Positions 18,067 to 32,408 of a stretch of DNA of 64,000 bases are shown piece after piece. The stretch spans positions 1,216,001 to 1,280,000 of the forward strand of contig OZ242351.1 in NCBI GenBank assembly GCA_965208675.1, given 5' to 3'. Position 1 is the first letter of the stretch. Every line of letters begins with the position of its first letter. This DNA is from Candidatus Poribacteria bacterium (GTDB taxonomy: Bacteria; Poribacteria; WGA-4E; PCPOR2b). Both the position numbers and the translations under genes were made by a program. The notes below the pieces were generated by a model. That model saw only the letters and a list, made by a program, of their open reading frames with translations. It was not told the origin of the DNA and did no database searches.

Positions 18067-18912
18067 CTAGGCTCTTCGATCAATCCCTGCTTCAGCGAAT
18101 GCACGAGATAACACGCCATAAGAAAAATCCGATGCTAGGAACGGATCATAGTCCTTGCGGTCTTGTACCATCATACTTACTTCGGCGGTAATGAATCCGT
18201 CATAGCCGTGTGTTTGCATCGCATGTAGGTACGCTACAAAATCGAAATTTCCTTCCCCTGGAATGAGAAACTCAAAGTCCGGATAACGCCCACGCTGATC
18301 CTTGACATGAGCGTGGACAGAATGCGGTGCTAGGACTGAAACCGTTTCTTCGATGGTCATCCCGACGATGTCAAAGTGGCTGATATCGAAATTTACCTTG
18401 AGGTTTGGTGAATCTACTAGCTCCAGCAACTCAATCATTTTATCCGGCGTATCAATAATTGCGCCGACGTGCGGTTCCATCGCAATTGTCACACCATGCG
18501 ATTGTGCGTATTCAACGAGATCAGCTGTCCGTTCCACGAGTAACTGCTTCCGGTCTTCCCACTGTTCCGGTTTACCGCCCGGAGTCGTGTTAATAGCGGG
18601 AATCATATCTTCCTGCCCTAAATCCACCGCTAAATCTATAGCGCCCTTCAGTCTCCGCAAATTGCGTGTGTGCGCTTCGAAATCGGTTTCAAGCAAACTC
18701 GAATGCGCGGCAATTGCCGGCAACGCCAGATGATGCTTCCTTAACAAATTGGCAATCCGTTTACGTTTATCGCTGTCAAGCGCGCTCAATTCTGTCGTGT
18801 AACGCGGAATGACCGTCAGTTCAATACCGTCAAACCCAAGTTGTGCAATATGGCGTATTGCCGTTTCAACGGGCACGCTCGGCATTCCCCACGTACTATA
18901 ACCGAGTTTCAT
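18067..18912 (-). CDS. Sugar phosphate isomerase/epimerase (xylose isomerase-like TIM barrel)
   Basis: GFDGIEL, AMEPH, NFDISH, HAHVKD, PGEG and GYDGFITAE. Confidence 0.92.
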   Translation of the reverse strand: MKLGYSTWGMPSVPVETAIRHIAQLGFDGIELTVIPRYTTELSALDSDKRKRIANLLRKHHLALPAIAAHSSLLETDFEAHTRNLRRLKGAIDLAVDLGQEDMIPAINTTPGGKPEQWEDRKQLLVERTADLVEYAQSHGVTIAMEPHVGAIIDTPDKMIELLELVDSPNLKVNFDISHFDIVGMTIEETVSVLAPHSVHAHVKDQRGRYPDFEFLIPGEGNFDFVAYLHAMQTHGYDGFITAEVSMMVQDRKDYDPFLASDFSYGVLSRAFAEAGIDRRA

Positions 18913-18931
18913 ACTTACGCTCCGTCATACG

Positions 18932-19717
18932 TTAGGGCCAAACCTGCGGGAAATACTGTCCCTTCAACAATTCCCCGTCCTCCACTTCTACGAACGGCTT
19001 CATTACGTGTTCACCGCTGGCATCGAACCGCGTTTCTTGCGTCATATAGTGTATCGCAATTGCCCGCCGCGGCCCCGCGCTAGTATTAGCGTGAGATGCG
19101 TGCCACGTCATCCCGTGGTGGTAGTGTACCTCTCCCATTCGCACAGGGCACCGCAATGCCTCCACTTTGCGCCCGTTGAATTCAGCAGGCAGGTCCTCAA
19201 ACGTGTCCAATTTTTGCTGGAGAAATTCAATCTGATCGCCCCAGCGGTACGAACCTGAAACCATACTCATGCAGCCATTGGATTCATCGACATCATCTAA
19301 AGCCGTCCAAGCAGTGACTTGTGTCTTCGGGTGCAGGATCGGCCACAGCGGTGCGTCTTGATGCCATCGATTAACGCCCCCTACTTCAGGAGGTTTGTAC
19401 TGAATCTGATCATGCCATACCCGCAGTTCGCTAGCCCGTGTCAACTGGGCAATCTCCTCGACAATCTTCCGATTACTCAACAGCGCCCGGAATACATCGC
19501 TCACCTCCCAAATATTGACAATTTGCCAGACTAACTTGTTTGGCGCGCTCGTCGCATTACGCTGCAAGAGAGGCTGCGCGGTATCGGCGTCATCTCTGTT
19601 ATCAATGACTCGCGTGAGCTCACGCCGCAACGCCTCCACCTGATCTCGATCCAACGCAAGTCCGCCATTGAGAAACCCCTTTGCGTCGAATTCCTCTACT
19701 TGTGATTCGGTCAACAT
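18932..19717 (-). CDS. Phytanoyl-CoA dioxygenase (PhyH) family Fe(II)/2-oxoglutarate oxygenase
   Basis: LTESQVEEF..KGF start, WHQD, WTALDD..ESNGC and HASHANTS..PRR. Confidence 0.92.
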   Translation of the reverse strand: MLTESQVEEFDAKGFLNGGLALDRDQVEALRRELTRVIDNRDDADTAQPLLQRNATSAPNKLVWQIVNIWEVSDVFRALLSNRKIVEEIAQLTRASELRVWHDQIQYKPPEVGGVNRWHQDAPLWPILHPKTQVTAWTALDDVDESNGCMSMVSGSYRWGDQIEFLQQKLDTFEDLPAEFNGRKVEALRCPVRMGEVHYHHGMTWHASHANTSAGPRRAIAIHYMTQETRFDASGEHVMKPFVEVEDGELLKGQYFPQVWP

Positions 19718-19862
19718 CAGTGACTCCCTCCCATTCAGAATAATATGCTATCTACAGTTACACGATGTACCGAATGTGCAGTTAATGGCTTTTCAATAAG
19801 ATAAAGTGAATGTGAAAGCCGCACTTGCCTATAGATTAATCCCTGCGGTTTTGGGCAACACC

Positions 19863-21137
19863 TCACACACTTAGAATTCCCAAACTGTCGTTGATTTCTT
19901 GTTGATAAGATTTGACCTTCTCGCTGATTACTTCGTCCACCGAAACAGGATGTCCAATCTCATTGGATTCCAGCATCGCATAAGAGACAGCAACAGATCG
20001 CGTGCCATGCTCGGCATCCACTTCAACATCCCCTTCACCCAAGATGGATGCTGCAAAATTCCCGTATTCAATTGCGATGTTCTTTCGATCTGTTTCAGAA
20101 AATGGGAATTGGTAATGCCAAAGCCGATCTCCACCAAACAGACCGGCTGTTATTGTATCAAGATGAAAATCTGGAACTAGATTTAGCATTCTCTCGTCAT
20201 CGAAAACATCCTCTCCCTCAATGTTAAGAATTATAGTGCCCCCGCTCCGATCCTGCGGCAAAGTCATCGATCCTCGGGAGCCGTGAATGCGCCTCGTCCA
20301 TATACCCTGGCCATACCCGGCGTGATCTTCAACGTACTGTCCGACAACGCCGCTCTTGAACGTCAGTGTAGCGTAAGCGGCATCTTCTGCAGTGGCTTCA
20401 AATTCGGCTGGCATCTGTTTCTGCCATTGCTCATAAACGCGGCTGGGGTTATTTTTAGGGCTACCTCCTTTAGCCGCGGGGTTTTTGCGGGTGCGCTCGT
20501 GCAGTCTCGTTTCCGCATAGACCGTATCTATTTCGCCCAGCAAGTATTCCATCATGTCAGTGAAATGCACGCCGACATCAAGAAGTATCCCCCCTTGGTT
20601 CTTTTGGTGGCGCCACGCCGTGATTATCATCTGATCCCGGCCTCCAACGGAATGATGGATGAGAAAGCGTGGCTCCCCGATGACGCCAGCGTCCAGAAGT
20701 GCTTTTGCCAACCGGTTGATGGGATCGCGGCGGTAATTCTCCGCCACACTCAAAATTGCATTGTTGTTCTCTGCAGCACGCCAAATTATGTTGCACGCCC
20801 GGACTGTAACACCCATCGGCTTTTCAACCATGGTGTGCCACCCGCGATTCAGTGTTTCAACAACGAGCGTATGATGATATCGCGGCGTTGAGGTCACACT
20901 GACCGCTTCAACACCGATTGCAGCCAATTCATCCAAATCACTGACGACGGTCGGATGGGTGCCAAAATCTCTCGCAGCCTGATTCGCAAGGGATGCCGCG
21001 TTCTCTCGTACCGGATCGCATGCGCCAACTAGCTCAAAGCCTTCCCACCCGATACGTCGGAGTTCTGCAAGGCCGTACAGATGGCGGTGTCCCATACCCC
21101 CACAGCCAACAATTGCCAATCGAATCTGCCGACTCAC
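19863..21137 (-). CDS. Gfo/Idh/MocA family oxidoreductase
   Basis: AIVGCGGMG, VEKPM, ENYR and GGILLDVGVH. GTG 21137 chosen because it has an SD and lies downstream of the promoter. Confidence 0.92.
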   Translation of the reverse strand: MSRQIRLAIVGCGGMGHRHLYGLAELRRIGWEGFELVGACDPVRENAASLANQAARDFGTHPTVVSDLDELAAIGVEAVSVTSTPRYHHTLVVETLNRGWHTMVEKPMGVTVRACNIIWRAAENNNAILSVAENYRRDPINRLAKALLDAGVIGEPRFLIHHSVGGRDQMIITAWRHQKNQGGILLDVGVHFTDMMEYLLGEIDTVYAETRLHERTRKNPAAKGGSPKNNPSRVYEQWQKQMPAEFEATAEDAAYATLTFKSGVVGQYVEDHAGYGQGIWTRRIHGSRGSMTLPQDRSGGTIILNIEGEDVFDDERMLNLVPDFHLDTITAGLFGGDRLWHYQFPFSETDRKNIAIEYGNFAASILGEGDVEVDAEHGTRSVAVSYAMLESNEIGHPVSVDEVISEKVKSYQQEINDSLGILSV

Positions 21138-21181
21138 TATTACCTGTCTCCATAAAACGGAATTAATGATTTGGTTCGCCA

Positions 21182-21210
21182 ATTATAGCGGTGTCATAGG
21201 TACATGTCAA
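21182..21210 (-). promoter_or_regulatory. Perfect-consensus sigma70 promoter for the Gfo/Idh/MocA gene (and possibly PhyH and the TIM-barrel gene)
   Basis: Minus strand reads TTGACA-17 nt-TATAAT. Confidence 0.75.
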
Positions 21211-21261
21211 TGACAAAAGGATTCCAAATCTGTCGGCGTGCCGTTCCAACCGACAATCATC

Positions 21262-21291
21262 TTGCATTGCGTCTTTGGTTTTTGATAAAAT
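21262..21291 (+). promoter_or_regulatory. Putative sigma70 promoter of the LOG-terpenoid cluster
   Basis: TTGCAT-18 nt-TAAAAT with an extended -10 TG. Implies a 5' leader of about 200 nt. Confidence 0.5.
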
Positions 21292-21496
21292 CTATAAAAT
21301 TAACCCATTCGCACTCCAGAATGTAGTTGCTAGATTCATCGGGAGTCAATGGGCATGTTCAGACGCTACACCCATCGTAGGCAGGGCATCTTGCTTCGCG
21401 TTCGTGATGAAAAACCGTAATAAATCACCAAATCGTTAAACCGCGTTAATCCTAAAAAAAAAAATTGAACTGAACAATGCGAGAAAGTGTGATGAA

Positions 21497-22045
21497 ATGA
21501 AACGCGTGTGCGTATTCTGCGGATCCAGCATGGGAAGGAATCCGGTGTATGCTGAAGCCGCAAAGCAGTTAGGCAACGTCTTGGCAAACAGAAACCTAGG
21601 ACTCGTTTACGGCGGCGCGAATATAGGCATGATGGGTGTGCTTGCCAACGCCGCCATCGATGCTGGCGGGGAAGTGATTGGCGTCGTACCAACGATATTC
21701 GTCGAGAAGGAAATCGCCCATGCCGCACTTTCTGACTTGCGAATCGTTGACTCGATGCACGAACGAAAAGCGCTTATGGCAGAACTTTCTGATGCGTTTG
21801 TTGCTCTCCCTGGCGGATTCGGCACCCTCGACGAATTCTTCGAAATGGTTACGTGGACGCAACTTGGGCTGCACCATAAACCCTGCGGTGTTCTTAACGC
21901 GTGTGGGTATTACAGCAAATTGACGGATTTCTTAGATTATGCGGTTTCGGAGGGGTTCATTAAGCCGCGTCATGGTTCATTGATACACATTGACGAAAGT
22001 CCGGAGGCGTTGCTTGAGAATTTTGAAAAGTTTATGCACTATTGA
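21497..22045 (+). CDS. LOG family (TIGR00730) nucleotide 5'-monophosphate phosphoribohydrolase
   Basis: CVFCGSS, LVYGG..GMMG, MHERKALM and PGGFGTLDE. Confidence 0.95.
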   Translation: MKRVCVFCGSSMGRNPVYAEAAKQLGNVLANRNLGLVYGGANIGMMGVLANAAIDAGGEVIGVVPTIFVEKEIAHAALSDLRIVDSMHERKALMAELSDAFVALPGGFGTLDEFFEMVTWTQLGLHHKPCGVLNACGYYSKLTDFLDYAVSEGFIKPRHGSLIHIDESPEALLENFEKFMHY

Positions 22046-23097
22046 CTTACTCACACGAATACTGCGAGGAGAGGATTATAAAAGCCGTAGTCTTTCAAGA
22101 AATTGGCAAATTATGCGTACAAGATAAACCGGTGCCGACGCTTTATACAGGCGACGTCCTAGTCAAGGTCAACCTTTGCGGTATCTGTGCATCAGACTTG
22201 GCAGCGCTCAACGGGGACATCACCGATTACTCACCGCCCGTCGTCATGGGGCATGAACTCGCAGGAATTGTCGTTGAAAGCCGACATCCCAACGCGACAG
22301 TAGGCGAAAACGTGACCGTGAATCCAATGCTGTCCTGTGGTAACTGTGATTATTGCCGGGCAGATTTGGACAAGTATTGCTCGCAAATTGAGGGAATCGG
22401 ACACGACATTGACGGCGGTTACGCTGAATACCTCCGGATGCCAAAACACGGAATTGATACAGGCAAACTCATCTCTGTACCAGATACGATTCCGCCGGAA
22501 GAGCTAATTTTTCTGGAGCCGTTAGGATGCTGTATCAATGCGATGCGCGAAACCATCTTCGATAAGAGCTTGGCAATCTTGGGGGCAGGCCCCATTGGTC
22601 TAATGTTCGTTAAACTAGCCAATAAGGCGGGATTGCGGACGTTTGTTCTTGAACCGCATGCGCATCGGCGGAGCGCCGCAAATGAATTAGGCGCAGACGC
22701 CGCTTTTGATATTACACCAGAGCAGGTCGAGGCGTTCATAGATAAGACTAACGGCGGCGTGAATACTGTTATCTCTGCGACTGTCAACAATCAGCGCGCG
22801 ATAAATCTCGCCTTCGCGGTTGTGCGGCGAGGAGGCTGTATAAATTTCTTTGGATTGGCACCAGGCGATCAGGAACTGCGGATTAACCTCGAACATTTTC
22901 ATTACTCAGGTCACAAACTAATGGCATCCTGGGCATTCTCCCGCTGGAGTTTGCGTGAAGCTAGTCGAATGATTGTTGATGGAACGATTGACATCAAGCC
23001 TTTGTTAACGCATAGATTTCCAATCGAAAAGGCTATTGAGGGGTTTGAAAACGCCCGGCAGCGGCACGGCGTGAAAACCGCAATGCACAGCGGATAA
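22042..23097 (+). CDS. Zinc-dependent medium-chain alcohol/polyol dehydrogenase
   Basis: CGICASD, GHE, structural Zn motif CGNCDYC..C and GAGPIG. Start is either TTG 22042 or non-canonical ATA 22078. Confidence 0.9.
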   Translation: MTYSHEYCEERIIKAVVFQEIGKLCVQDKPVPTLYTGDVLVKVNLCGICASDLAALNGDITDYSPPVVMGHELAGIVVESRHPNATVGENVTVNPMLSCGNCDYCRADLDKYCSQIEGIGHDIDGGYAEYLRMPKHGIDTGKLISVPDTIPPEELIFLEPLGCCINAMRETIFDKSLAILGAGPIGLMFVKLANKAGLRTFVLEPHAHRRSAANELGADAAFDITPEQVEAFIDKTNGGVNTVISATVNNQRAINLAFAVVRRGGCINFFGLAPGDQELRINLEHFHYSGHKLMASWAFSRWSLREASRMIVDGTIDIKPLLTHRFPIEKAIEGFENARQRHGVKTAMHSG

Positions 23098-23150
23098 ATA
23101 CTTGGGCGATGTTACTCCAAGCAACTTCTCCTACTTGATAACAAATCATC

Positions 23151-24071
23151 ATGAACACATTAAAGGCATACCTTGAACTCATTCGTTATCCCCTCTTCGC
23201 CATCCCGATCGTTGCAACGCTACCCGGCGCATTGATTGCTTCAGAGGGTGCGTGGAGTTGGCGTGTCGGACTAACGCTCCTTATTGCGATGCTCGGTTAC
23301 TTCGCAGGCATGATGAAGAACGACTATTTCCACCGCGATCAGGACTATATTGTAAATCCGAACCGCCCGATTCCGTCGCACCGTCTCACACCTCGCCAGG
23401 TAATGATTACCGCAAGCGGCATTTACATCATCTGCGTCATTTTGGGTTTCACGCTCCACATCAAAGCCGGACTTCTGGTGATTGCCCTAGTGATGATTTC
23501 GCATTCTTATAACGCCATCTTCAAGGAACGCGGAATACTGGGAAGCATTAGCCTTCCCATTGGCATCGGTCTCCTCAATATTTTTGGCGCGTTAGCCGTA
23601 AGCGGCGGCGTGCCGCGTTTGGTCTGGTATGCGTTCGCCGCGACAACGCTCTACGACTGCGGCACGCACATCACCACAACATTCAAGGACATAGAGCGTG
23701 ACAAAAAAATTGGCATTACCACCACCCCTTTACAATTGGGAATCAAACCTGCGCTTGTCATTTCCGGCGTGGCAACAATCCTCGCTTTTATTGCCGCCGC
23801 TCTGCCATACTGGATAGAAGGTGTTGGTTGGCATTATACGGTGTGGATTGTTTTTGCATTGATTGCAACAAGTATCACCCGTCTTCCGCTTTACCTGAAT
23901 CCGAATGAAAAGAACGGCTATCTTGCCCTTCAGGGTTCCATGATTGGCGCAGTTACGTTTTTCCCTTGCTTCGCTAGCATTCAGATTTCCCTCTGGGGTT
24001 CGGCGCTGTTAATCTTGCCCTTGCTGTTGGTGACCATGACGCTGCTGAAAGTGACCAAGCGGGAGGTCTAA
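23151..24071 (+). CDS. UbiA-family membrane prenyltransferase with an atypical first Asp-rich motif
   Basis: YLELIR, NDYFHRDQD...RPIPS and KDIERDKKIG; about 9 TM segments. Confidence 0.9.
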   Translation: MNTLKAYLELIRYPLFAIPIVATLPGALIASEGAWSWRVGLTLLIAMLGYFAGMMKNDYFHRDQDYIVNPNRPIPSHRLTPRQVMITASGIYIICVILGFTLHIKAGLLVIALVMISHSYNAIFKERGILGSISLPIGIGLLNIFGALAVSGGVPRLVWYAFAATTLYDCGTHITTTFKDIERDKKIGITTTPLQLGIKPALVISGVATILAFIAAALPYWIEGVGWHYTVWIVFALIATSITRLPLYLNPNEKNGYLALQGSMIGAVTFFPCFASIQISLWGSALLILPLLLVTMTLLKVTKREV

Positions 24072-24179
24072 TTCGAAACCGGCTTCTTTCTCAAACCATT
24101 TCGACACTGCAGAAAAGTCAGTGTCTTTGCAATAGCCCAACTCCTTCACAGCCAAAAAGGTTTAAAACACAACTAAAAC

Positions 24180-25853
24180 ATGAAAAAGCTCGCCGAATCC
24201 GCCCTACATCGAGGTTCCGCCCATTTACTCAGGCAACAAAATTCAACAGGCAGCTTTGAAGGAAAGCTTTCCTCAAGCACATTTCCCACCTGCGCTTACG
24301 CTTGGGTAATGTTTGCTCAAAACCAACTGCCCGATCAAATGTTAATTGATTGGATCCTAAATAACCAGAACCCGGACGGAACATGGGGGCTTGATGCTGC
24401 CAATCAGCCAAATCGCGAAGCTACATTATTTGCGAAACTCATATTAAGTCAAGTTGCCAAGCAGAATCCAAATCCGCAGATTACAGAAGCCTTAAAGCGC
24501 ACCCCTGATTATCCTTTAGCGCTTGCATTGAACAAATTGGCTTATGCAGCATTCGGCGAGTACAACTGGGACAAGCTGACCATTCCAAGGCGTATGCTCC
24601 CTGTAATGACGCTGACAAAAAAGGTGCTAGCCAGATTCCCATCACTGCGGTCCTTCCTAAAACCCCCGAGGAACGTCCTCCCTCCCGTAGACCTCTTCAA
24701 TTCACCTATGTTTGGAAACCTATTTATCGCGGAGCAATATACACTCGTCGCTGTTTTTACCATGATTGAACTGAATACCCGGCGACGCCCAAAAGTAATC
24801 AAATCGCTTGTCAATTGGCTCAAGGTACACATGCTACCCGACAATAGTTGGTTTCGTGTAAATTACATAACTGCGCTATCCGTATTAGCCCTAGTGGAAC
24901 TTCAGAAAGTACAAGGCATTGACGAAGACACCCAGTTGATAATCGATCGAGGAATTTCCTGGCTTCAATCCACGCGAAATACCGATGGCGGGTGCCGTGA
25001 GGCCTTAAACCTTAACGTGTGGGATACCGCCCTTAGCATAATCTCGCTTCTAGAAATTAACGGCATCAACGGAAACAGCGCGATCCAAATTGCATGCAAA
25101 TGGTTAATCGAAAATCAGAACACGGATGGCGGTTGGGCGTTTTCTCGAATGCGCCCAAACGAAAACCTCCCGAGCGATGCTGACGACACGGCTTTAGCCA
25201 CGCTGGCATTAATCCAATCGAAAACGCCGCCGACTGCCGCAGCAATTCAAAACGGATTGAATTGGCTAACCGCGAACCAAACATCCGATGGATGCTGGAG
25301 TACATATCTTCCCGGTCAGGGCGATGTCGGGTGCGTAAGCATCACCGCACACGCAATCGAGGCATTGCACGAAGTACCCGGTACTGAAGCGCAGATTTCG
25401 CGGGCAACCCACTGGATTAAGGGTCAAATTTCATCTGACGGATATTGGACGGATTTATGGTTAGCCAAACGAACTTATGGGACAGCCTGTGCCGTTATTG
25501 CCTTAAACAAAGTGGGAATGAAGGACACGACGGAAGTTTCACGGGGAGTGCATTGGCTTGAATCCGTACAAAACAGCGACGGCGGGTGGGGAGAAGATAT
25601 GTTTGGTAACCGGAGGGATAGCACAATCGAACAAACGGCGTGGTGCACCCACGCGCTCCTACTCGCCAACCCTGGAAACCAAGCCGCCAAAAATGGGTTA
25701 AACCACCTCCTAAACCGCCAAAAATCGGACGGTTCCTGGGACGCGAGTTGCGTGGGCATCTACTGGGAAATCATCGGCGGCTACGCCGATCCGATTTACG
25801 CTTCCGTGTTTCCCCTGCGCGCACTGAATCAGTATTTGAAAGGTTCAAAATAG
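24180..25853 (+). CDS. Squalene-hopene-cyclase-like class II terpene cyclase (shortened)
   Basis: Multiple QW repeats (QNPDGTW, QNTDGGW, QTSDGCW, QNSDGGWGE, QKSDGSW), VWDTAL and the catalytic DADDTA. Confidence 0.9.
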   Translation: MKKLAESALHRGSAHLLRQQNSTGSFEGKLSSSTFPTCAYAWVMFAQNQLPDQMLIDWILNNQNPDGTWGLDAANQPNREATLFAKLILSQVAKQNPNPQITEALKRTPDYPLALALNKLAYAAFGEYNWDKLTIPRRMLPVMTLTKKVLARFPSLRSFLKPPRNVLPPVDLFNSPMFGNLFIAEQYTLVAVFTMIELNTRRRPKVIKSLVNWLKVHMLPDNSWFRVNYITALSVLALVELQKVQGIDEDTQLIIDRGISWLQSTRNTDGGCREALNLNVWDTALSIISLLEINGINGNSAIQIACKWLIENQNTDGGWAFSRMRPNENLPSDADDTALATLALIQSKTPPTAAAIQNGLNWLTANQTSDGCWSTYLPGQGDVGCVSITAHAIEALHEVPGTEAQISRATHWIKGQISSDGYWTDLWLAKRTYGTACAVIALNKVGMKDTTEVSRGVHWLESVQNSDGGWGEDMFGNRRDSTIEQTAWCTHALLLANPGNQAAKNGLNHLLNRQKSDGSWDASCVGIYWEIIGGYADPIYASVFPLRALNQYLKGSK

Positions 25854-25918
25854 AAATAATCCGTACACGCTGCTAAAACTCACGTCGCACAAGGGCAATC
25901 ACCTCATGTCTGGCTAAA

Positions 25919-26590
25919 ATGATTTCTGTCATCATTCCAATTCTCAACGAAGCGAAAATCTTGGAACAGTCGCTCTCCCAACTCACTCAACAACTGCAAA
26001 GTCATCAGCTAATTATCGTCGACGGCGGCAGTTCAGATGGAAGTCTTTTCATTGCGAAAAAATTCGGACAAGCATTATCTTCTCCCCAAGGAAGAGCCAG
26101 TCAAATGAATGCCGGCGCTGCCGCTGCAAACGGAGACATTCTGCTGTTTTTGCATGCTGACGTTTGGCTGGAGTTCGGCGCAATCAACGGAGTCGAAACA
26201 GCAATCGCAACAGGATACGTGGGCGGTGCGTTTAAACAGCGCATCGAAGGCGGGCATATTCTATATCGCCTAATTGAGCGAGGTGCGAACTTTAGAGCAC
26301 AACGCCTACAGCTTTTTTACGGCGACGGAGGGATTTTTATACGTAAGCGCCACTTCTACCAAATCGGCGGCTTCCCCAATGTTCCTATCCTTGAAGAGAT
26401 GGAATTTTCTCGAAAACTCCGACACCTCGGTAAAACCACACTTGTTGAGCCAGGAATTCGAATCTCCTCCCGGCGCTGGAAGAAGAGCGGGATCGTTCGA
26501 ACGACCACCCTCAATTGGTTTATCACTGCGCTGTTTTCTCTGGGTGTATCCCCGGTCCGGCTCGCGAGATTGTATCGTCATATCCGTTAA
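25919..26590 (+). CDS. GT2 glycosyltransferase (TIGR04283-like)
   Basis: ISVIIPILNE, VDGGSSD, GRASQMNAGA, FLHAD, YGD, GGFP..ILEE and SSRRW. Confidence 0.88.
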   Translation: MISVIIPILNEAKILEQSLSQLTQQLQSHQLIIVDGGSSDGSLFIAKKFGQALSSPQGRASQMNAGAAAANGDILLFLHADVWLEFGAINGVETAIATGYVGGAFKQRIEGGHILYRLIERGANFRAQRLQLFYGDGGIFIRKRHFYQIGGFPNVPILEEMEFSRKLRHLGKTTLVEPGIRISSRRWKKSGIVRTTTLNWFITALFSLGVSPVRLARLYRHIR

Positions 26591-26766
26591 TTGCGGAAAT
26601 TCACCCATCGCCATTAGCTCAAAGTCGAAATGCGTCAAACCCGATTGCATGGTACCACATCCACACCGGTAGTTACATAGTAAATGATCGTCCTTAAAAT
26701 CGCGCAAACAGACTCGAATTGAATTCCCTTCGTTGCCCTTGTACCGTCAGGTACTAACACACGATC

Positions 26767-27348
26767 TCATCTCTGATTCCGGTAGATTGTCACCTCCATA
26801 GCGTCCCGATTGACCCACGGCAAATCAATCTCAAACCAGTGGGTCTGACTTTCGTATAGAGAACGAACAAGATTCAGGTAATCCGCCATCTCTGACGCAC
26901 CGATCGCTACGTTGTCCGCAACCACCGTCGCACCATCAAGGAGACGCGATTCAATTGCCCGAAAAGAGGAGTAATATGCGCCGAAACTGTTGTCTAGCAG
27001 TAGAAAATCTATGTCGTCATTAACTACTTTCAGGACGTCTGCGGCATCCCCAATCCGCGAATCAACTTGCTCGCTGAAACCGGCGCGCGCGAAGTTCTCT
27101 TGGGCTTCATGGGCGCGGTCGGCATCAATCTCAACAGTGATTAGCCTGCCCTTGCCCATCGCTTGCAATCTCGACGCTATCCACAATCCGGAATAGCCGA
27201 TTGCGGTACCGCATTCTACAATTAGTGACGGTTTTACCTGCTCAATGAGGTCGGTGAGAAATTCAGCCTTTTCGCGTCCGAGCATAGGAATATGCCGCTG
27301 CCGGCATTGGCTATCCACTTTCTGCAACACCTGATCGAATTGGGTCAT
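26767..27348 (-). CDS. Class I SAM-dependent O-methyltransferase (caffeoyl-CoA OMT-like)
   Basis: ECGTAIGYSGLW, ITVEID, RIGDA and VVADN. Confidence 0.9.
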   Translation of the reverse strand: MTQFDQVLQKVDSQCRQRHIPMLGREKAEFLTDLIEQVKPSLIVECGTAIGYSGLWIASRLQAMGKGRLITVEIDADRAHEAQENFARAGFSEQVDSRIGDAADVLKVVNDDIDFLLLDNSFGAYYSSFRAIESRLLDGATVVADNVAIGASEMADYLNLVRSLYESQTHWFEIDLPWVNRDAMEVTIYRNQR

Positions 27349-27382
27349 CGGTTTATCCTTCCCTTACATGGGGTTCATTCGC

Positions 27383-27409
27383 TGTAGGGGCAACCCTTGC
27401 GGTTGCCCT
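27383..27409 (+). repeat. GTAG-type REP palindrome, copy 1
   Basis: TGTAG-GGGCAACC-CTTGC-GGTTGCCC-T; 25/27 identical to the copy at 32516. Confidence 0.75.
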
Positions 27410-29486: not shown

Positions 29487-32408
29487 ATGATTACATTGAT
29501 ACAATTGTTCATAACACGCTTCAAGTTTTTTATCGTGCGTCGCAATTCGCGCATTACACCGGCTTCACCGGCGATTTCATTGTTCTTCTTATGCCTGTCC
29601 ACAATTCTTTTTCACTCCCAAACTAGTTGGGCGCAGGGATTTGGCAAAAACAAAGTCACCGATGAACCTTTCGACTGGAAAATTCACCGCACAGAACATT
29701 TTGATATTCATTACTACCCTAGCGGAGAGCGGCTTGTTCCGATTATGGCAGACATTGCGGAAGAAGCGTATGAAAAGCACAGCGAAGATTTTGACCACGA
29801 AATCAAAGATCGCACACCGCTAATCCTATATCAATCCCACAAAGACTTTCAGGAGACCAATATTATACTGCAGGAGATTCACGAAGGCATTGGCGGTTTC
29901 GCTGAAATATTTAAGCGGCGTATGGTAATTCCCTTCACTGGTTCAATGGAAGCGTTTCGAGAAGTCATATTTCACGAATTAGTGCATATCTTTCAATACG
30001 ATATTATCTATCAGAAACCTGCGGCTCATATCTATAGCGGCGAATTTCTCTATTCACCTCCAATCTGGTTTATTGAAGGATCGGCAGACTACTTTGGCGA
30101 AGACAATGACACGATCGGAGAGATGGTTTTACGAGATGCAAGCCTCGCCAACTACATCGTGCCGTTGACCCGCCTTCAAGATTTCCGCGTTCTTGGCCCG
30201 CATGTCTTTCTCGGGTATAAGATGGGGCAATCCGCAGTTGGGTACTTGGTGGAAACTTATGGGCGAGACAAAGTGGGGCAGATTATGCATGAATTAAGGC
30301 ACATCCGAACAAAAGATATCGACATTGCCTTCAAAAATGTGCTCGGCATTGGTCTCGAAGAGTTCGATAAAAGTTGGCGCCGCGTCGTTCAGAAAAAATA
30401 TTGGCCCCTGGTTGAGCACAAGGATACGCCAGATACCATTGCCAAAAGCCTGACTGAAAAATCCCGATATTCCAGCAACGTTAAGCCGGCTTGGTCGCCA
30501 AGCGGCGACATCATCGCCTACATTACCGGCAGCGACGGATTTGGCGAAATCGTCCTCGTATCCGCAAAGAGCGGGAAAAGACTTGCCCGAATTAGCAAAC
30601 GTTTCTTTGGAAGTAAATACGAAGACCTCCGCATGGACGGCAGCGGAATTGCTTGGTCGCCTGATGGTGATTGTATTGCATGTATTGCCAAGCATCACGG
30701 AACGGATTATCTATTGGAGATTGATATCATAACCAAAAAACTAAAGCGCCGCTTAAAACTCGACTTTGATGCAGCATATTCACCGAGCTATGATGGAAAC
30801 GGTGACCGCATCGTTTTTGCTGCATTAGACAAAGGACAATCCGATTTATATGTCATTGAGCTTTTAACCGGAGAGATTACTCGGTTGACAAACGACCCCT
30901 TCGATGATAACCACCCTTCATGGCACCCAACAACAGAAGAAATCATCTATGCCTCAGAGCGCGAGAGCAAGAACAAGCTAGTCATCTTTGATGTGAGTAA
31001 CCGCACACAACGGCAGTTGACATACGGCGAACACAACGCCGTGAGTCCAAAATGGTCGCCCGATGGGGAAAAAATAATTTTCTGCTCGGACCTGCACGGC
31101 GTCTACGATTTGCACACGATTAAACCGGATGGAGCGGATTTTACGAGACTGACAAGTATTATCACAGGGTGCTTCAACCCTAGCCTTGACCCCCATCAGA
31201 GAAATATCGTCTTTACTGCGTATCAAAATGGAAGACAGGACATCTATCTCATGGACACGGCAAAGGCGATGGATGACAAGATTGACATGCCGCCTTTGGA
31301 GGTACAGCCGATAATTGCGGACGCTTCGACACCGCCGCCGCGCCGCATTGGCCGCAGGAAATACGATACCAACATTGCCTTGGACGCTATTTTCACGAAC
31401 TTTAATTTGGGCGCTGACGGTCTTCTGCGGAACACGACGGAGTTCATCGGGAGCGATATGATGGGTAATCATCGGTTGGGAGCAAGTTTGATAAATCAAT
31501 CAGGCTTCCTGGCACCGGATTTCATACTACGATACGGATTTCTCGCACGTCGCAGCGATATTGGTGCCGCCCTTTTTAACTACCACCAATATTACCTCTT
31601 GGGTACAACTCGCGATCGCCGCGGGTATTTGCAGCGGACAACTGGCTTTCTAGGATACATGAGTTATCCATTCAATCGCTATCGTCGGTTAGATTTCAAC
31701 CTCTTAATGTACTCTACCCCGTTTTCTTTCAACTTTGAACCTAATCCGACGCGCAATTTTGGCGACAACCGTGCAATCCTTTTTCTCGGAACACTCTCTC
31801 TCGTGGGTGATACCACGATGTGGAAAGTGTTTGGGCCCCATACTGGCACACGCTACAAACTTACATTCGAGAAGTCGTTCCGGGCTTTAGGCAGCGAACT
31901 ACAATTGACGAATCTAGTCTTCGACTATCGCCGATATTTTAAACTTGGCAGGCGTTCAACATTTGCAACCCGTTTGCTGCTAGGTGGCAGCTTTGGCTCG
32001 GATAAATCCCTCTTTTATCTCGGCGGCATTGATACGCTCAGGGGATATCGCTACCAGGACCTAATCGGTACGCGTATGGGACTAATGAATTTTGAGATTC
32101 GAATCCCATTCATTGACGAGCTGAGGTTTGGTTGGCCCTTCCCATGGGCAATCAGCGGGATTCGTGGTATTGCTTTCTCTGATTTTGGCACTGTTTGGTC
32201 GGAGGCGCTCCACCACGACAATCCATATCACGTCTTTCATAAGGAGAATAACCGCTATCGCCTTGATGATGTCAAAGGTTCTGTTGGCATTGGACTCCGA
32301 TTACAGCTTGGGTTCTTCTCTCTTGATTTCGATGTAGCGCGTCGAACCGACCTCGCCGAGATTAATCCGGACACAATGTTCCACTTTGGACTAAGCCAAG
32401 CCTTTTGA
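29487..32408 (+). CDS. Omp85/BamA-family outer-membrane protein with N-terminal HExxH peptidase-like domain and PD40/TolB propeller
   Basis: FGKNKV, HELVH...WFIEG, PAWSP/PKWSPDG repeats, LGG.DTLRGY lid motif and C-terminal FHFGLSQAF. Confidence 0.85.
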   Translation: MITLIQLFITRFKFFIVRRNSRITPASPAISLFFLCLSTILFHSQTSWAQGFGKNKVTDEPFDWKIHRTEHFDIHYYPSGERLVPIMADIAEEAYEKHSEDFDHEIKDRTPLILYQSHKDFQETNIILQEIHEGIGGFAEIFKRRMVIPFTGSMEAFREVIFHELVHIFQYDIIYQKPAAHIYSGEFLYSPPIWFIEGSADYFGEDNDTIGEMVLRDASLANYIVPLTRLQDFRVLGPHVFLGYKMGQSAVGYLVETYGRDKVGQIMHELRHIRTKDIDIAFKNVLGIGLEEFDKSWRRVVQKKYWPLVEHKDTPDTIAKSLTEKSRYSSNVKPAWSPSGDIIAYITGSDGFGEIVLVSAKSGKRLARISKRFFGSKYEDLRMDGSGIAWSPDGDCIACIAKHHGTDYLLEIDIITKKLKRRLKLDFDAAYSPSYDGNGDRIVFAALDKGQSDLYVIELLTGEITRLTNDPFDDNHPSWHPTTEEIIYASERESKNKLVIFDVSNRTQRQLTYGEHNAVSPKWSPDGEKIIFCSDLHGVYDLHTIKPDGADFTRLTSIITGCFNPSLDPHQRNIVFTAYQNGRQDIYLMDTAKAMDDKIDMPPLEVQPIIADASTPPPRRIGRRKYDTNIALDAIFTNFNLGADGLLRNTTEFIGSDMMGNHRLGASLINQSGFLAPDFILRYGFLARRSDIGAALFNYHQYYLLGTTRDRRGYLQRTTGFLGYMSYPFNRYRRLDFNLLMYSTPFSFNFEPNPTRNFGDNRAILFLGTLSLVGDTTMWKVFGPHTGTRYKLTFEKSFRALGSELQLTNLVFDYRRYFKLGRRSTFATRLLLGGSFGSDKSLFYLGGIDTLRGYRYQDLIGTRMGLMNFEIRIPFIDELRFGWPFPWAISGIRGIAFSDFGTVWSEALHHDNPYHVFHKENNRYRLDDVKGSVGIGLRLQLGFFSLDFDVARRTDLAEINPDTMFHFGLSQAF

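Follow-up and report, generated by a model that had tools for sequence, protein, structure and literature searches.

The squalene-hopene cyclase (SHC) of Alicyclobacillus acidocaldarius (1gsz/2sqc) is a class II terpenoid cyclase with a βγ fold of two alpha/alpha-barrel domains and a DxDD general-acid motif. The same fold and motif are found in bacterial class II sesqui- and diterpene cyclases of ~500–560 aa, such as SsDMS (7xq4/7xr7), a drimenyl diphosphate synthase, ent-CPP synthase (5bp8), and Rv3377c (6vpt), which form few rings from a prenyl chain. In the merosterol pathway, a UbiA-type prenyltransferase is paired with a DxDD cyclase, MstE (6sbb), which has a single domain of 367 aa. The Bacillus sesquarterpene pathway (HepS/HepT, YtpB, SqhC) does not pass through squalene; there, a cyclase of the SHC family takes a long chain of prenyl origin as its substrate. 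In this study, we report a class II cyclase gene and its neighbors in the genome of a Candidatus Poribacteria bacterium (G000, 96.4% complete), located in a stretch of 64,000 nucleotides (G000:C1:1216001-1280000, hereafter the window) of a single contig of 4.89 Mb. Poribacteria are abundant and uncultured symbionts of sponges, which are rich in terpenoids of unclear origin. The cyclase gene (window 24180–25853, plus strand) encodes a protein of 557 aa and is followed by a GT2 glycosyltransferase gene (25919–26590, plus strand; 223 aa; PF00535). The conserved functional unit of the locus is a predicted two-gene operon formed by these two genes.

The distribution of both genes was determined in 151 Poribacteria genomes from nine families (f1 to f9), G000 included; since these genomes are kin to one another, the counts are not independent events and overstate independence. 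The cyclase was found in 149 genomes and belongs to the phylum core as a single-copy gene, located in ever-changing housekeeping neighborhoods whose composition varies by family (DnaK, BipA, PurN, PurQ, transporters). The GT2 was present in 138 genomes (E ≤ 1e-30) and in none of the 151 without the cyclase. Both genes occurred together in these 138 genomes, and in 135 of them the GT2 directly followed the cyclase on its strand, at a median distance of 47 nt (range −1 to 1424). In the three exceptions the two genes were 307 kb apart (one genome) or on separate contigs (two genomes). This adjacency spans families f1, f2, f3, f5, and f7, and the 11 genomes having the cyclase without the GT2 belonged to f4, f6, f8, f9, parts of f5 and, in a single case, f2. 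A second comparison covered four families of the order; in its 18 cyclase loci, searched with the window proteins, the GT2 adjoined the cyclase in 14 loci, the UbiA gene did so in five (G001, G002, G003, G005, and G006), and a homolog of the methyltransferase encoded further downstream in the window was beside the GT2 in three, all from the same genus as G000. Families f8 and f9 lack the GT2, and there the 3′-terminal 4 nt of the cyclase gene were shared with a DUF123 gene (L053:5663-6040 and L054:8617-9021).

With respect to the cyclase itself, matches over cut-off to PF13243 (SQHop_cyclase_C, 161 bits) and PF13249 (70 bits), a DxDD motif (DADD, residues 333–336) and the βγ double alpha-barrel of its AlphaFold model (pLDDT 92.4) place it in the class II superfamily, and it would presumably act as a terpenoid cyclase. 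Residues D333, D335, D336, H391, and W427 were invariant in 40 aligned cyclase sequences. The protein is about 75 residues shorter than SHC and was below every NCBIfam cyclase cut-off, with 141.3 bits for the SHC equivalog TIGR01507 (cut-off 431.1) and 176.2 bits for TIGR01787 (cut-off 322.7). Among solved structures, SHC was the closest relative, both for the single sequence (E 2e-32, 115.8 bits) and for the profile of the 40-sequence family, which gave 382.5 bits with SHC, 187 with lanosterol synthase, 138.7 with drimenyl diphosphate synthase and 73 with MstE. Foldseek comparison of the model had SHC as the best match (TMq 0.80), with 0.78 for OSC and 0.72–0.74 for drimenyl diphosphate synthase. 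Only three full-length proteins more than 40% identical to the cyclase were found among 1.84 billion representatives clustered at 50%, the next one being 34% identical (199 bits). An organism name was available for five of its best 120 relatives, and it was Candidatus Poribacteria bacterium in all five; among 20 distant relatives, hardly any of which carried a name, the JGI labels were "squalene cyclase" and "prenyltransferase beta subunit."

A quick tree (IQ-TREE, LG+G4, 97 rows, root unknown) was calculated from 21 poribacterial rows together with 76 of 148 distant representatives, which were chosen by length and labeled by NCBIfam (P0121 being counted as poribacterial). The 22 poribacterial rows formed one clade (SH-aLRT 100), nested among unlabeled members of the superfamily, and a branch with a support of 99 separated it from every one of the 22 proteins that exceeded the TIGR01507 cut-off. 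The SHC side of this branch also held four tetrahymanol-synthase-like proteins and 19 of the 20 SHC-like proteins below the cut-off. Scores and tree thereby place the predicted cyclase outside the ordinary squalene-hopene cyclases, in keeping with the original prediction, and in a clade of its own that is specific to Poribacteria. The loci of the sister clades, formed by relatives of P0158, P0166, and P0174, were not recovered: a search of genome contigs with four sequences gave identities of ≤32% only, the best matches being from Candidatus Poribacteria and followed by generic SHC-like genes, and a search of metagenome contigs with three sister sequences gave ≤35% only. Among the SHC-like proteins below the cut-off, one of 560 aa (P0274) is named Candidatus Methanoperedens, an archaeon, by NCBI; the representative of its cluster, P0136, reached 392 bits with TIGR01507 (cut-off 431).

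In order to compare the active sites, 29 poribacterial sequences were aligned to 1gsz. The three Asp residues of the DxDD motif and the positions aligned to H451, Y495, W489, W312, F365, and Y420 of SHC were invariant in all 29 sequences, and Y609 was likewise kept in all of them as Y535 of the poribacterial protein. Other positions were replaced with similar strictness. The substitutions E45 to A, E93 to F, W169 to A, F437 to V, D447 to S, F601 to I and F605 to I or V were present in 29/29 sequences, R127 to L and P263 to Y in 28/29, and Q262 to N in 27/29; V was fixed in place of I261, and F434 fell inside a deletion of the poribacterial cyclase. The protein therefore has neither the set of distal-cavity aromatics of SHC (W169, F434, F437, F601, F605) nor the residues of its water network (E45, E93, R127, Q262). 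We take the kept residues to surround the proton donor and the first rings formed by SHC, and most of the replaced ones to lie along the distal end of the cavity and in the network of terminal water molecules; W489, a late-ring residue that is kept, is the exception to this pattern. Such strict conservation of the replacements shows a distinct active site under selection in the poribacterial cyclases. Given that the residues aligned to the distal cavity are replaced, the enzyme probably forms fewer rings than hopene cyclase.

The supply of squalene was then considered, as G000 might still contain a divergent enzyme of the squalene-hopene type, fed with squalene by the sponge host or by an unrecognized synthase and yielding hopanoid-like lipids that the GT2 would decorate. 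In favor of this explanation are the position of SHC as the best solved match in sequence, profile and fold, the conservation of the DxDD motif and of the residues aligned to the proton-donor network, and the "squalene cyclase" label that some JGI records give to relatives. Sponge-metagenome-labeled sequencing runs (12 runs, 8 studies) contained 0.20–0.46 of the sampled words of the stretch, which agrees with the sponge link raised in the original prediction and also speaks for this explanation. In addition, a squalene/phytoene synthase gene (PF00494) was present in 48/151 genomes of the phylum. It was not found, however, in the other 103, nor was there any match in the whole genome of G000 (the control being positive in 8/14 genomes), so that the absence of squalene synthesis genes previously noted for the window extends to 4.89 Mb and G000 lacks the squalene supply expected of an SHC host. 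Only 5 of 41 relatives had the gene and, among the coordinates listed, it was far from the cyclase (in G058, at 3.76 Mb vs. 4.39 Mb). HpnH over cut-off was not found in G000 either, nor in any control genome. The low TIGR01507 score, the separation from all 22 SHCs over the cut-off and the replaced residues of the distal cavity and terminal water network are also contrary to this explanation, and a phylum-core gene that depended on squalene from the host would not sit easily with the nine families sampled. We therefore regard an enzyme of the squalene-hopene type as unlikely.

Other isoprenoid sources are available in G000. Its trans-prenyl diphosphate synthases are one short-chain enzyme, GGPP/IdsA-like (GGPP, geranylgeranyl diphosphate), and one long-chain enzyme located in a heme gene cluster. 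It has five UbiA paralogs, namely an MqnP-like protein with UbiX, heme O synthase, a pair similar to DGGGP synthase that adjoins genes for GGGP synthase and geranylgeranyl reductase, and the window copy. YtpB (PF10776) was not found in the genome (the control was positive in B. subtilis) and the cyclase is not SqhC-like by score, which distinguishes this system from the Bacillus sesquarterpene pathway. The bacterial class II sesqui- and diterpene cyclases, which form few rings from a prenyl chain, are our working model. It must be noted that the profile similarity to drimenyl diphosphate synthase is weaker than that to SHC, that no diphosphate-binding residues were identified in the poribacterial cyclase, and that a class I partner was not evident, the PF19086 profile being silent in the control genomes too.

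In attention to these data, the explanation that we favor, with moderate confidence, is a Poribacteria-wide cyclase-GT2 pathway to a cyclized non-squalene isoprenoid lipid that is glycosylated in most lineages. The substrate of the cyclase and the product of the pathway are both deduced indirectly. The cyclase would protonate an endogenous all-trans prenyl chain at its terminal double bond. This chain would come from the prenyl diphosphate synthases of the genome and would be either C20 and derived from GGPP or a longer polyprenyl chain, but not squalene. The GT2 would then glycosylate the cyclized product in most lineages, probably joined by the unlinked TIGR04282 protein described below. The distribution of the genes is that of a core, vertically inherited function, which points to a membrane lipid taking the functional place of hopanoids and not to a natural product of particular strains. 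A more detailed version of this proposal, which we put forward only tentatively and consider rather doubtful as a whole, is that Poribacteria make an undescribed cyclic isoprenoid lipid or glycolipid with few rings on a C20-to-C40 chain, to which the TIGR04283 and TIGR04282 proteins add sugar, and which acts as a hopanoid surrogate.

Several points weigh against the favored explanation. SHC is still the best match, in sequence and fold, among solved structures, the PF00494 gene is present in 48 genomes, and uptake of host squalene by Poribacteria is possible. W489 is kept, so the proposal of fewer rings relies on a pattern that is not complete and on the roles given to SHC residues in the literature. 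Glycosylation is not obligatory, because the GT2 is missing from four families that have the cyclase, and a fold search with the GT2 model returned only generic GT-A matches which do not point to any acceptor. Moreover, kinship of the genomes inflates the counts, although the cyclase-GT2 adjacency spans five families.

The GT2 was the only member of TIGR04283 over cut-off in G000 (228.4 bits, cut-off 182). Its model had a GT-A fold (pLDDT 89.5), and the sequence and fold searches gave relatives of general GT-A type only (WrtF, PcManGT, GpgS, DPMS; TMq 0.58–0.70). TIGR04283 is one of a trio of arsenosugar-associated families, with TIGR04282 and the radical SAM (S-adenosylmethionine) protein ArsS (TIGR04167), and therefore the GT2 could be an arsenosugar-pathway glycosyltransferase whose place behind the cyclase is functionally meaningless. 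G000 does carry the other two genes elsewhere: TIGR04282 (178 bits, cut-off 134) is away from the cyclase-GT2 pair, at G000:C1:4358988-4359566, and an ArsS-type radical SAM gene (427 bits, cut-off 300) is located at G000:C1:599053-599946 (L050:4048-5001, minus strand), divergent from an MTA phosphorylase gene. Nevertheless, ArsS was found in only 35/151 genomes, in comparison with 138/151 for the GT2. The two did not share a distribution: ArsS was confined to f1 (24/25 genomes) and f3 (10/10), and it was in none of the 100 genomes of f2, of which 99 had the GT2. TIGR04282 was present in 140/151 genomes and followed the family pattern of the GT2, being found in f1, f2, f3, f5, and f7 and not found in f4, f6, f8, or f9. 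Because the distribution of the GT2 tracks the cyclase and TIGR04282, and not ArsS, the name arsenosugar does not fit its role in most Poribacteria. The fixed neighbor of the GT2 is the terpenoid cyclase, without which it never occurred and which it adjoined in 135/138 genomes, and an arsenosugar role is accordingly highly improbable.

The cyclase and the GT2 are part of a longer row in the window. Upstream, on the plus strand, are a LOG gene (21497–22045; PF03641), a Zn-dehydrogenase gene (ZnADH, 22042–23097; TTG start; ADH_N and ADH_zinc_N domains) and the UbiA gene (23151–24071; 306 aa; PF01040, 126 bits, cut-off 34); downstream and convergent, 176 nt from the GT2, is a SAM-dependent methyltransferase gene (26767–27348, minus strand; Methyltransf_24 and Methyltransf_3 of Pfam). 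The gaps between the five co-oriented genes, from LOG to GT2, are −4, 53, 108, and 65 nt. The original prediction had described these six genes and their spacing correctly, as verified by the ORF coordinates and by Pfam and NCBIfam, and had interpreted them as one cluster for a single pathway. This last interpretation fails because the genes are not co-conserved in relatives, where only the cyclase and the GT2 stay together; the unusual DxDD cyclase and the lack of squalene synthase are the parts of it that hold. The UbiA ortholog was found in 147/151 genomes of the phylum. In the 146 genomes compared for distance, it was within 5 kb of the cyclase in five. In 67 others the two shared a contig with 36.7 kb or more between them, and in 74 they were on different contigs. 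In the set of 41 relatives, 39 had it (66–92% identity), mostly megabases from the cyclase.

The neighborhood of the UbiA gene has its own conservation. ZnADH adjoined UbiA in 9/14 UbiA loci (families f1 and f3), and LOG was beside ZnADH and UbiA in 4/14, all of them from genus g5; in G002, LOG was 1.1 kb from ZnADH. Genes of the PhyH family, DAO and EamA were also recurrent neighbors. ZnADH and LOG therefore travel with UbiA and not with the cyclase, and the GT2 travels with the cyclase, from which it follows that two blocks were brought side by side in one sub-lineage. What the window shows as one row are units conserved separately and juxtaposed at the level of the genus, and the methyltransferase, confined to the genus of G000, is outside the conserved unit. 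Restriction-modification genes (XamI-type restriction enzyme and methylase) were located between ZnADH and UbiA in G003, G005, G006, G017, and G021, and toxin-antitoxin-like genes were similarly inserted in relatives. The inserted methylase has ~530 aa and its stop codon overlaps the start of UbiA (insertions at L014:4471-7016, L016:3387-6782, L019:4149-6706, L033:5536-7128, and L034:5491-7128), and the XamI-type endonuclease gene precedes it in L014, L016, and L019. Family calls were tested on the gene of L014 for XamI and on those of L014 and L033 for Eco57I/N6_Mtase, with the remaining copies assigned by clustering.

These data bear directly on the pathway originally proposed for the row, a meroterpenoid route in which UbiA prenylates an acceptor, the cyclase cyclizes the chain, ZnADH oxidizes, the GT2 glycosylates and the methyltransferase methylates the product. 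In a variant of it, the cyclase would make a cyclic prenyl diphosphate and UbiA would transfer it. The genes are indeed co-oriented and tightly spaced in G000, as in the merosterol pathway a UbiA gene is beside that of a DxDD cyclase (UbiA is directly upstream of the cyclase in G000–G003, G005, G006, and G009), and the cyclase family profile detects MstE. Moreover, both proteins could co-operate from separate loci, because they are nearly universal in the phylum. On the other hand, MstE has one domain and the poribacterial cyclase has two, the UbiA of the window is DGGGP-synthase-like and not clearly an aromatic prenyltransferase, and the row contains no gene for the biosynthesis of an aromatic acceptor. 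The scarce proximity of UbiA to the cyclase, the conserved neighbors of its own, the insertions that split it from ZnADH, and the low frequencies of the methyltransferase (3/18 cyclase loci) and LOG (4/14 UbiA loci) are also contrary to a common pathway. Beyond local adjacency, nothing argues for co-operation of UbiA and the cyclase. With proximity in 5/146 genomes, the meroterpenoid cluster is weakly supported, and we judge both forms of this pathway, taken together, to be improbable.

Fusion proteins also count against this pathway: no GT2 or UbiA domain was found in 19 long relatives (691–1733 aa), whose additions were MacB/FtsX, subtilase, BamB-like, DUF116, or TetR. Some of these metagenomic relatives carry a full SHC-like domain pair in fusion with either a permease module of the MacB/FtsX type or a subtilase at the N-terminus (P0165, P0168, and P0171, of ~1170 aa; P0196 and P0199, of ~1120 aa), an architecture which suggests that the cyclase fold may have roles beyond those of soluble cyclases. 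G000 itself encodes, at G000:C1:3745851-3746810 (L052:3851-4810, minus strand), a protein of 319 aa consisting of squalene-cyclase-type repeats only, with weak matches to SCO2321_fam (99 bits) and TIGR01787 (94 bits), and most of the 41 relatives had a comparable second match of ~320–370 aa.

A further candidate for the substrate of the cyclase is the all-trans polyprenyl tail of menaquinone or of its precursor, which would result in an omega-cyclized quinone of the kind known from Nocardia. In G045, a VitK2_biosynth gene (MqnA/D family), an amidohydrolase gene and the cyclase gene follow one another on one strand with gaps of 16 and 3 nt, and in G044 the order is amidohydrolase, cyclase, and GT2. 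In G000–G003 the TIGR04282 gene is ~1 kb from a PF02621 gene, and G000 has the long-chain prenyl diphosphate synthase and the MqnP-like UbiA already mentioned. PF02621, of the futalosine pathway, was found in 146/151 genomes of the phylum. The link was seen in two genera only, however, and among the matches listed TIGR04282 and the best PF02621 match were far apart in the other genomes (139 more matches exist). In addition, the genomes of f6, f8, and f9 have the cyclase (5/5) without any PF02621 match (0/5), so that a quinone substrate seems very unlikely.

Returning to the favored cyclase-GT2 pathway, a single-copy cyclase in 149/151 genomes of a phylum mostly without squalene/phytoene synthase implies an unrecognized isoprenoid lipid of general importance. 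No description of the cyclase or of the cyclase-GT2 pair was found in the parts of the Poribacteria terpene, squalene, and hopanoid literature that were covered, a scope that did not include the pangenome paper and supplementary tables, and a full-text search found no paper on TIGR04283. In this regard, the picture of an orphan biosynthetic cluster at the level of a strain must be corrected: the notable object is smaller, more general and phylum-wide. The core cyclase will be reported in every Poribacteria genome by those genome-mining tools that take SQHop_cyclase matches for terpene clusters. Two genes suffice for an expression test of the cyclic lipid, the result of which would define the substrate of a new cyclase clade and assign a function to a widespread GT2 family named only by its arsenosugar association. 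Should the proposal be true, the lipid could serve as a biomarker for these symbionts of sponges, and the TIGR04282/TIGR04283 pair would for the first time be assigned a biochemical role beyond arsenosugars.

With regard to the UbiA protein, the PF01040 match over cut-off and both Asp-rich motifs of its translation (NDYFHRDQD and DIERD) assign it by sequence to the UbiA superfamily. Its closest solved relative was the DGGGP synthase 6m31 (E 1.8e-16) and its best NCBIfam match was PRK12884, but the scores for this model (126 bits, cut-off 269) and for PRK12882 (107 bits, cut-off 296) were too low for a DGGGP synthase. A better DGGGP-synthase-like paralog is present elsewhere in G000 (PRK12884 237 bits). 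It belongs to an archaeal-type ether-lipid gene set situated ~63 kb upstream of the window (G000:C1:1148293-1153413; L047:1293-6413, minus strand), which also includes GGGP synthase (NF003198 274 bits, cut-off 247), geranylgeranyl reductase (TIGR02032 168 bits, cut-off 159) and a second UbiA-like gene of 355 aa. GGGP synthase over cut-off was found in 121/151 genomes of the phylum. A dependence of the cyclase or of UbiA on archaeal-type ether lipids was considered and rejected, because genus g5 keeps both (the window-type UbiA in 20/20 genomes) with GGGP synthase in only 1/20; these ether-lipid genes are not required for either protein.

ZnADH is assigned by its domains to the Zn-dependent polyol/alcohol dehydrogenases. 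Its best NCBIfam matches were IolM-like (163 bits) and Tdh-like (156 bits), both far below the cut-offs. A group of genes divergent from LOG (18067–21182, minus strand) encodes a xylose-isomerase-like TIM barrel, a PhyH-family dioxygenase, and a GFO/IDH/MocA oxidoreductase. Given these sugar/inositol-type genes nearby and the resemblance to scyllo-inosose 3-dehydrogenase in its best NCBIfam match, ZnADH may serve carbohydrate rather than terpenoid metabolism. Its relatives align only from residue 10–13 onward; therefore its start is uncertain and it may not truly overlap LOG by 4 nt. The LOG protein was over the TIGR00730 cut-off (195.9 bits, cut-off 96.35) and has the PGGxGTxxE motif (PGGFGTLDE), while the score for the cytokinin-specific equivalog NF058542 was 137 bits (cut-off 300). 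It is probably unrelated to the cyclase.

The original prediction also placed the five genes behind one promoter. A simple consensus scan revealed no promoter-like site on the plus strand within positions 21183–21496, upstream of LOG, which leaves that claim unsupported. In the 7 kb scanned the numbers of sites were those of shuffled sequence, with 12 promoter-like sites (shuffle mean 8.4) and 9 terminator-like sites (shuffle mean 8.7), and no RNA run was present among the sequencing runs listed for window positions 21400–27400. The only 12-of-12 promoter-like site of the scanned region, a perfect TTGACA-17-TATAAT at 21182–21210 on the minus strand, was directly upstream of the GFO/IDH/MocA oxidoreductase gene (19863–21182, minus strand). 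Finally, downstream of the row, positions 29487–32408 (plus strand) encode a protein of 973 aa in which a peptidase MA domain is joined to TolB-like beta-propeller repeats and, at the C-terminus, to an Omp85 barrel. This architecture is unusual, and the protein is kept downstream in the genus of G000.

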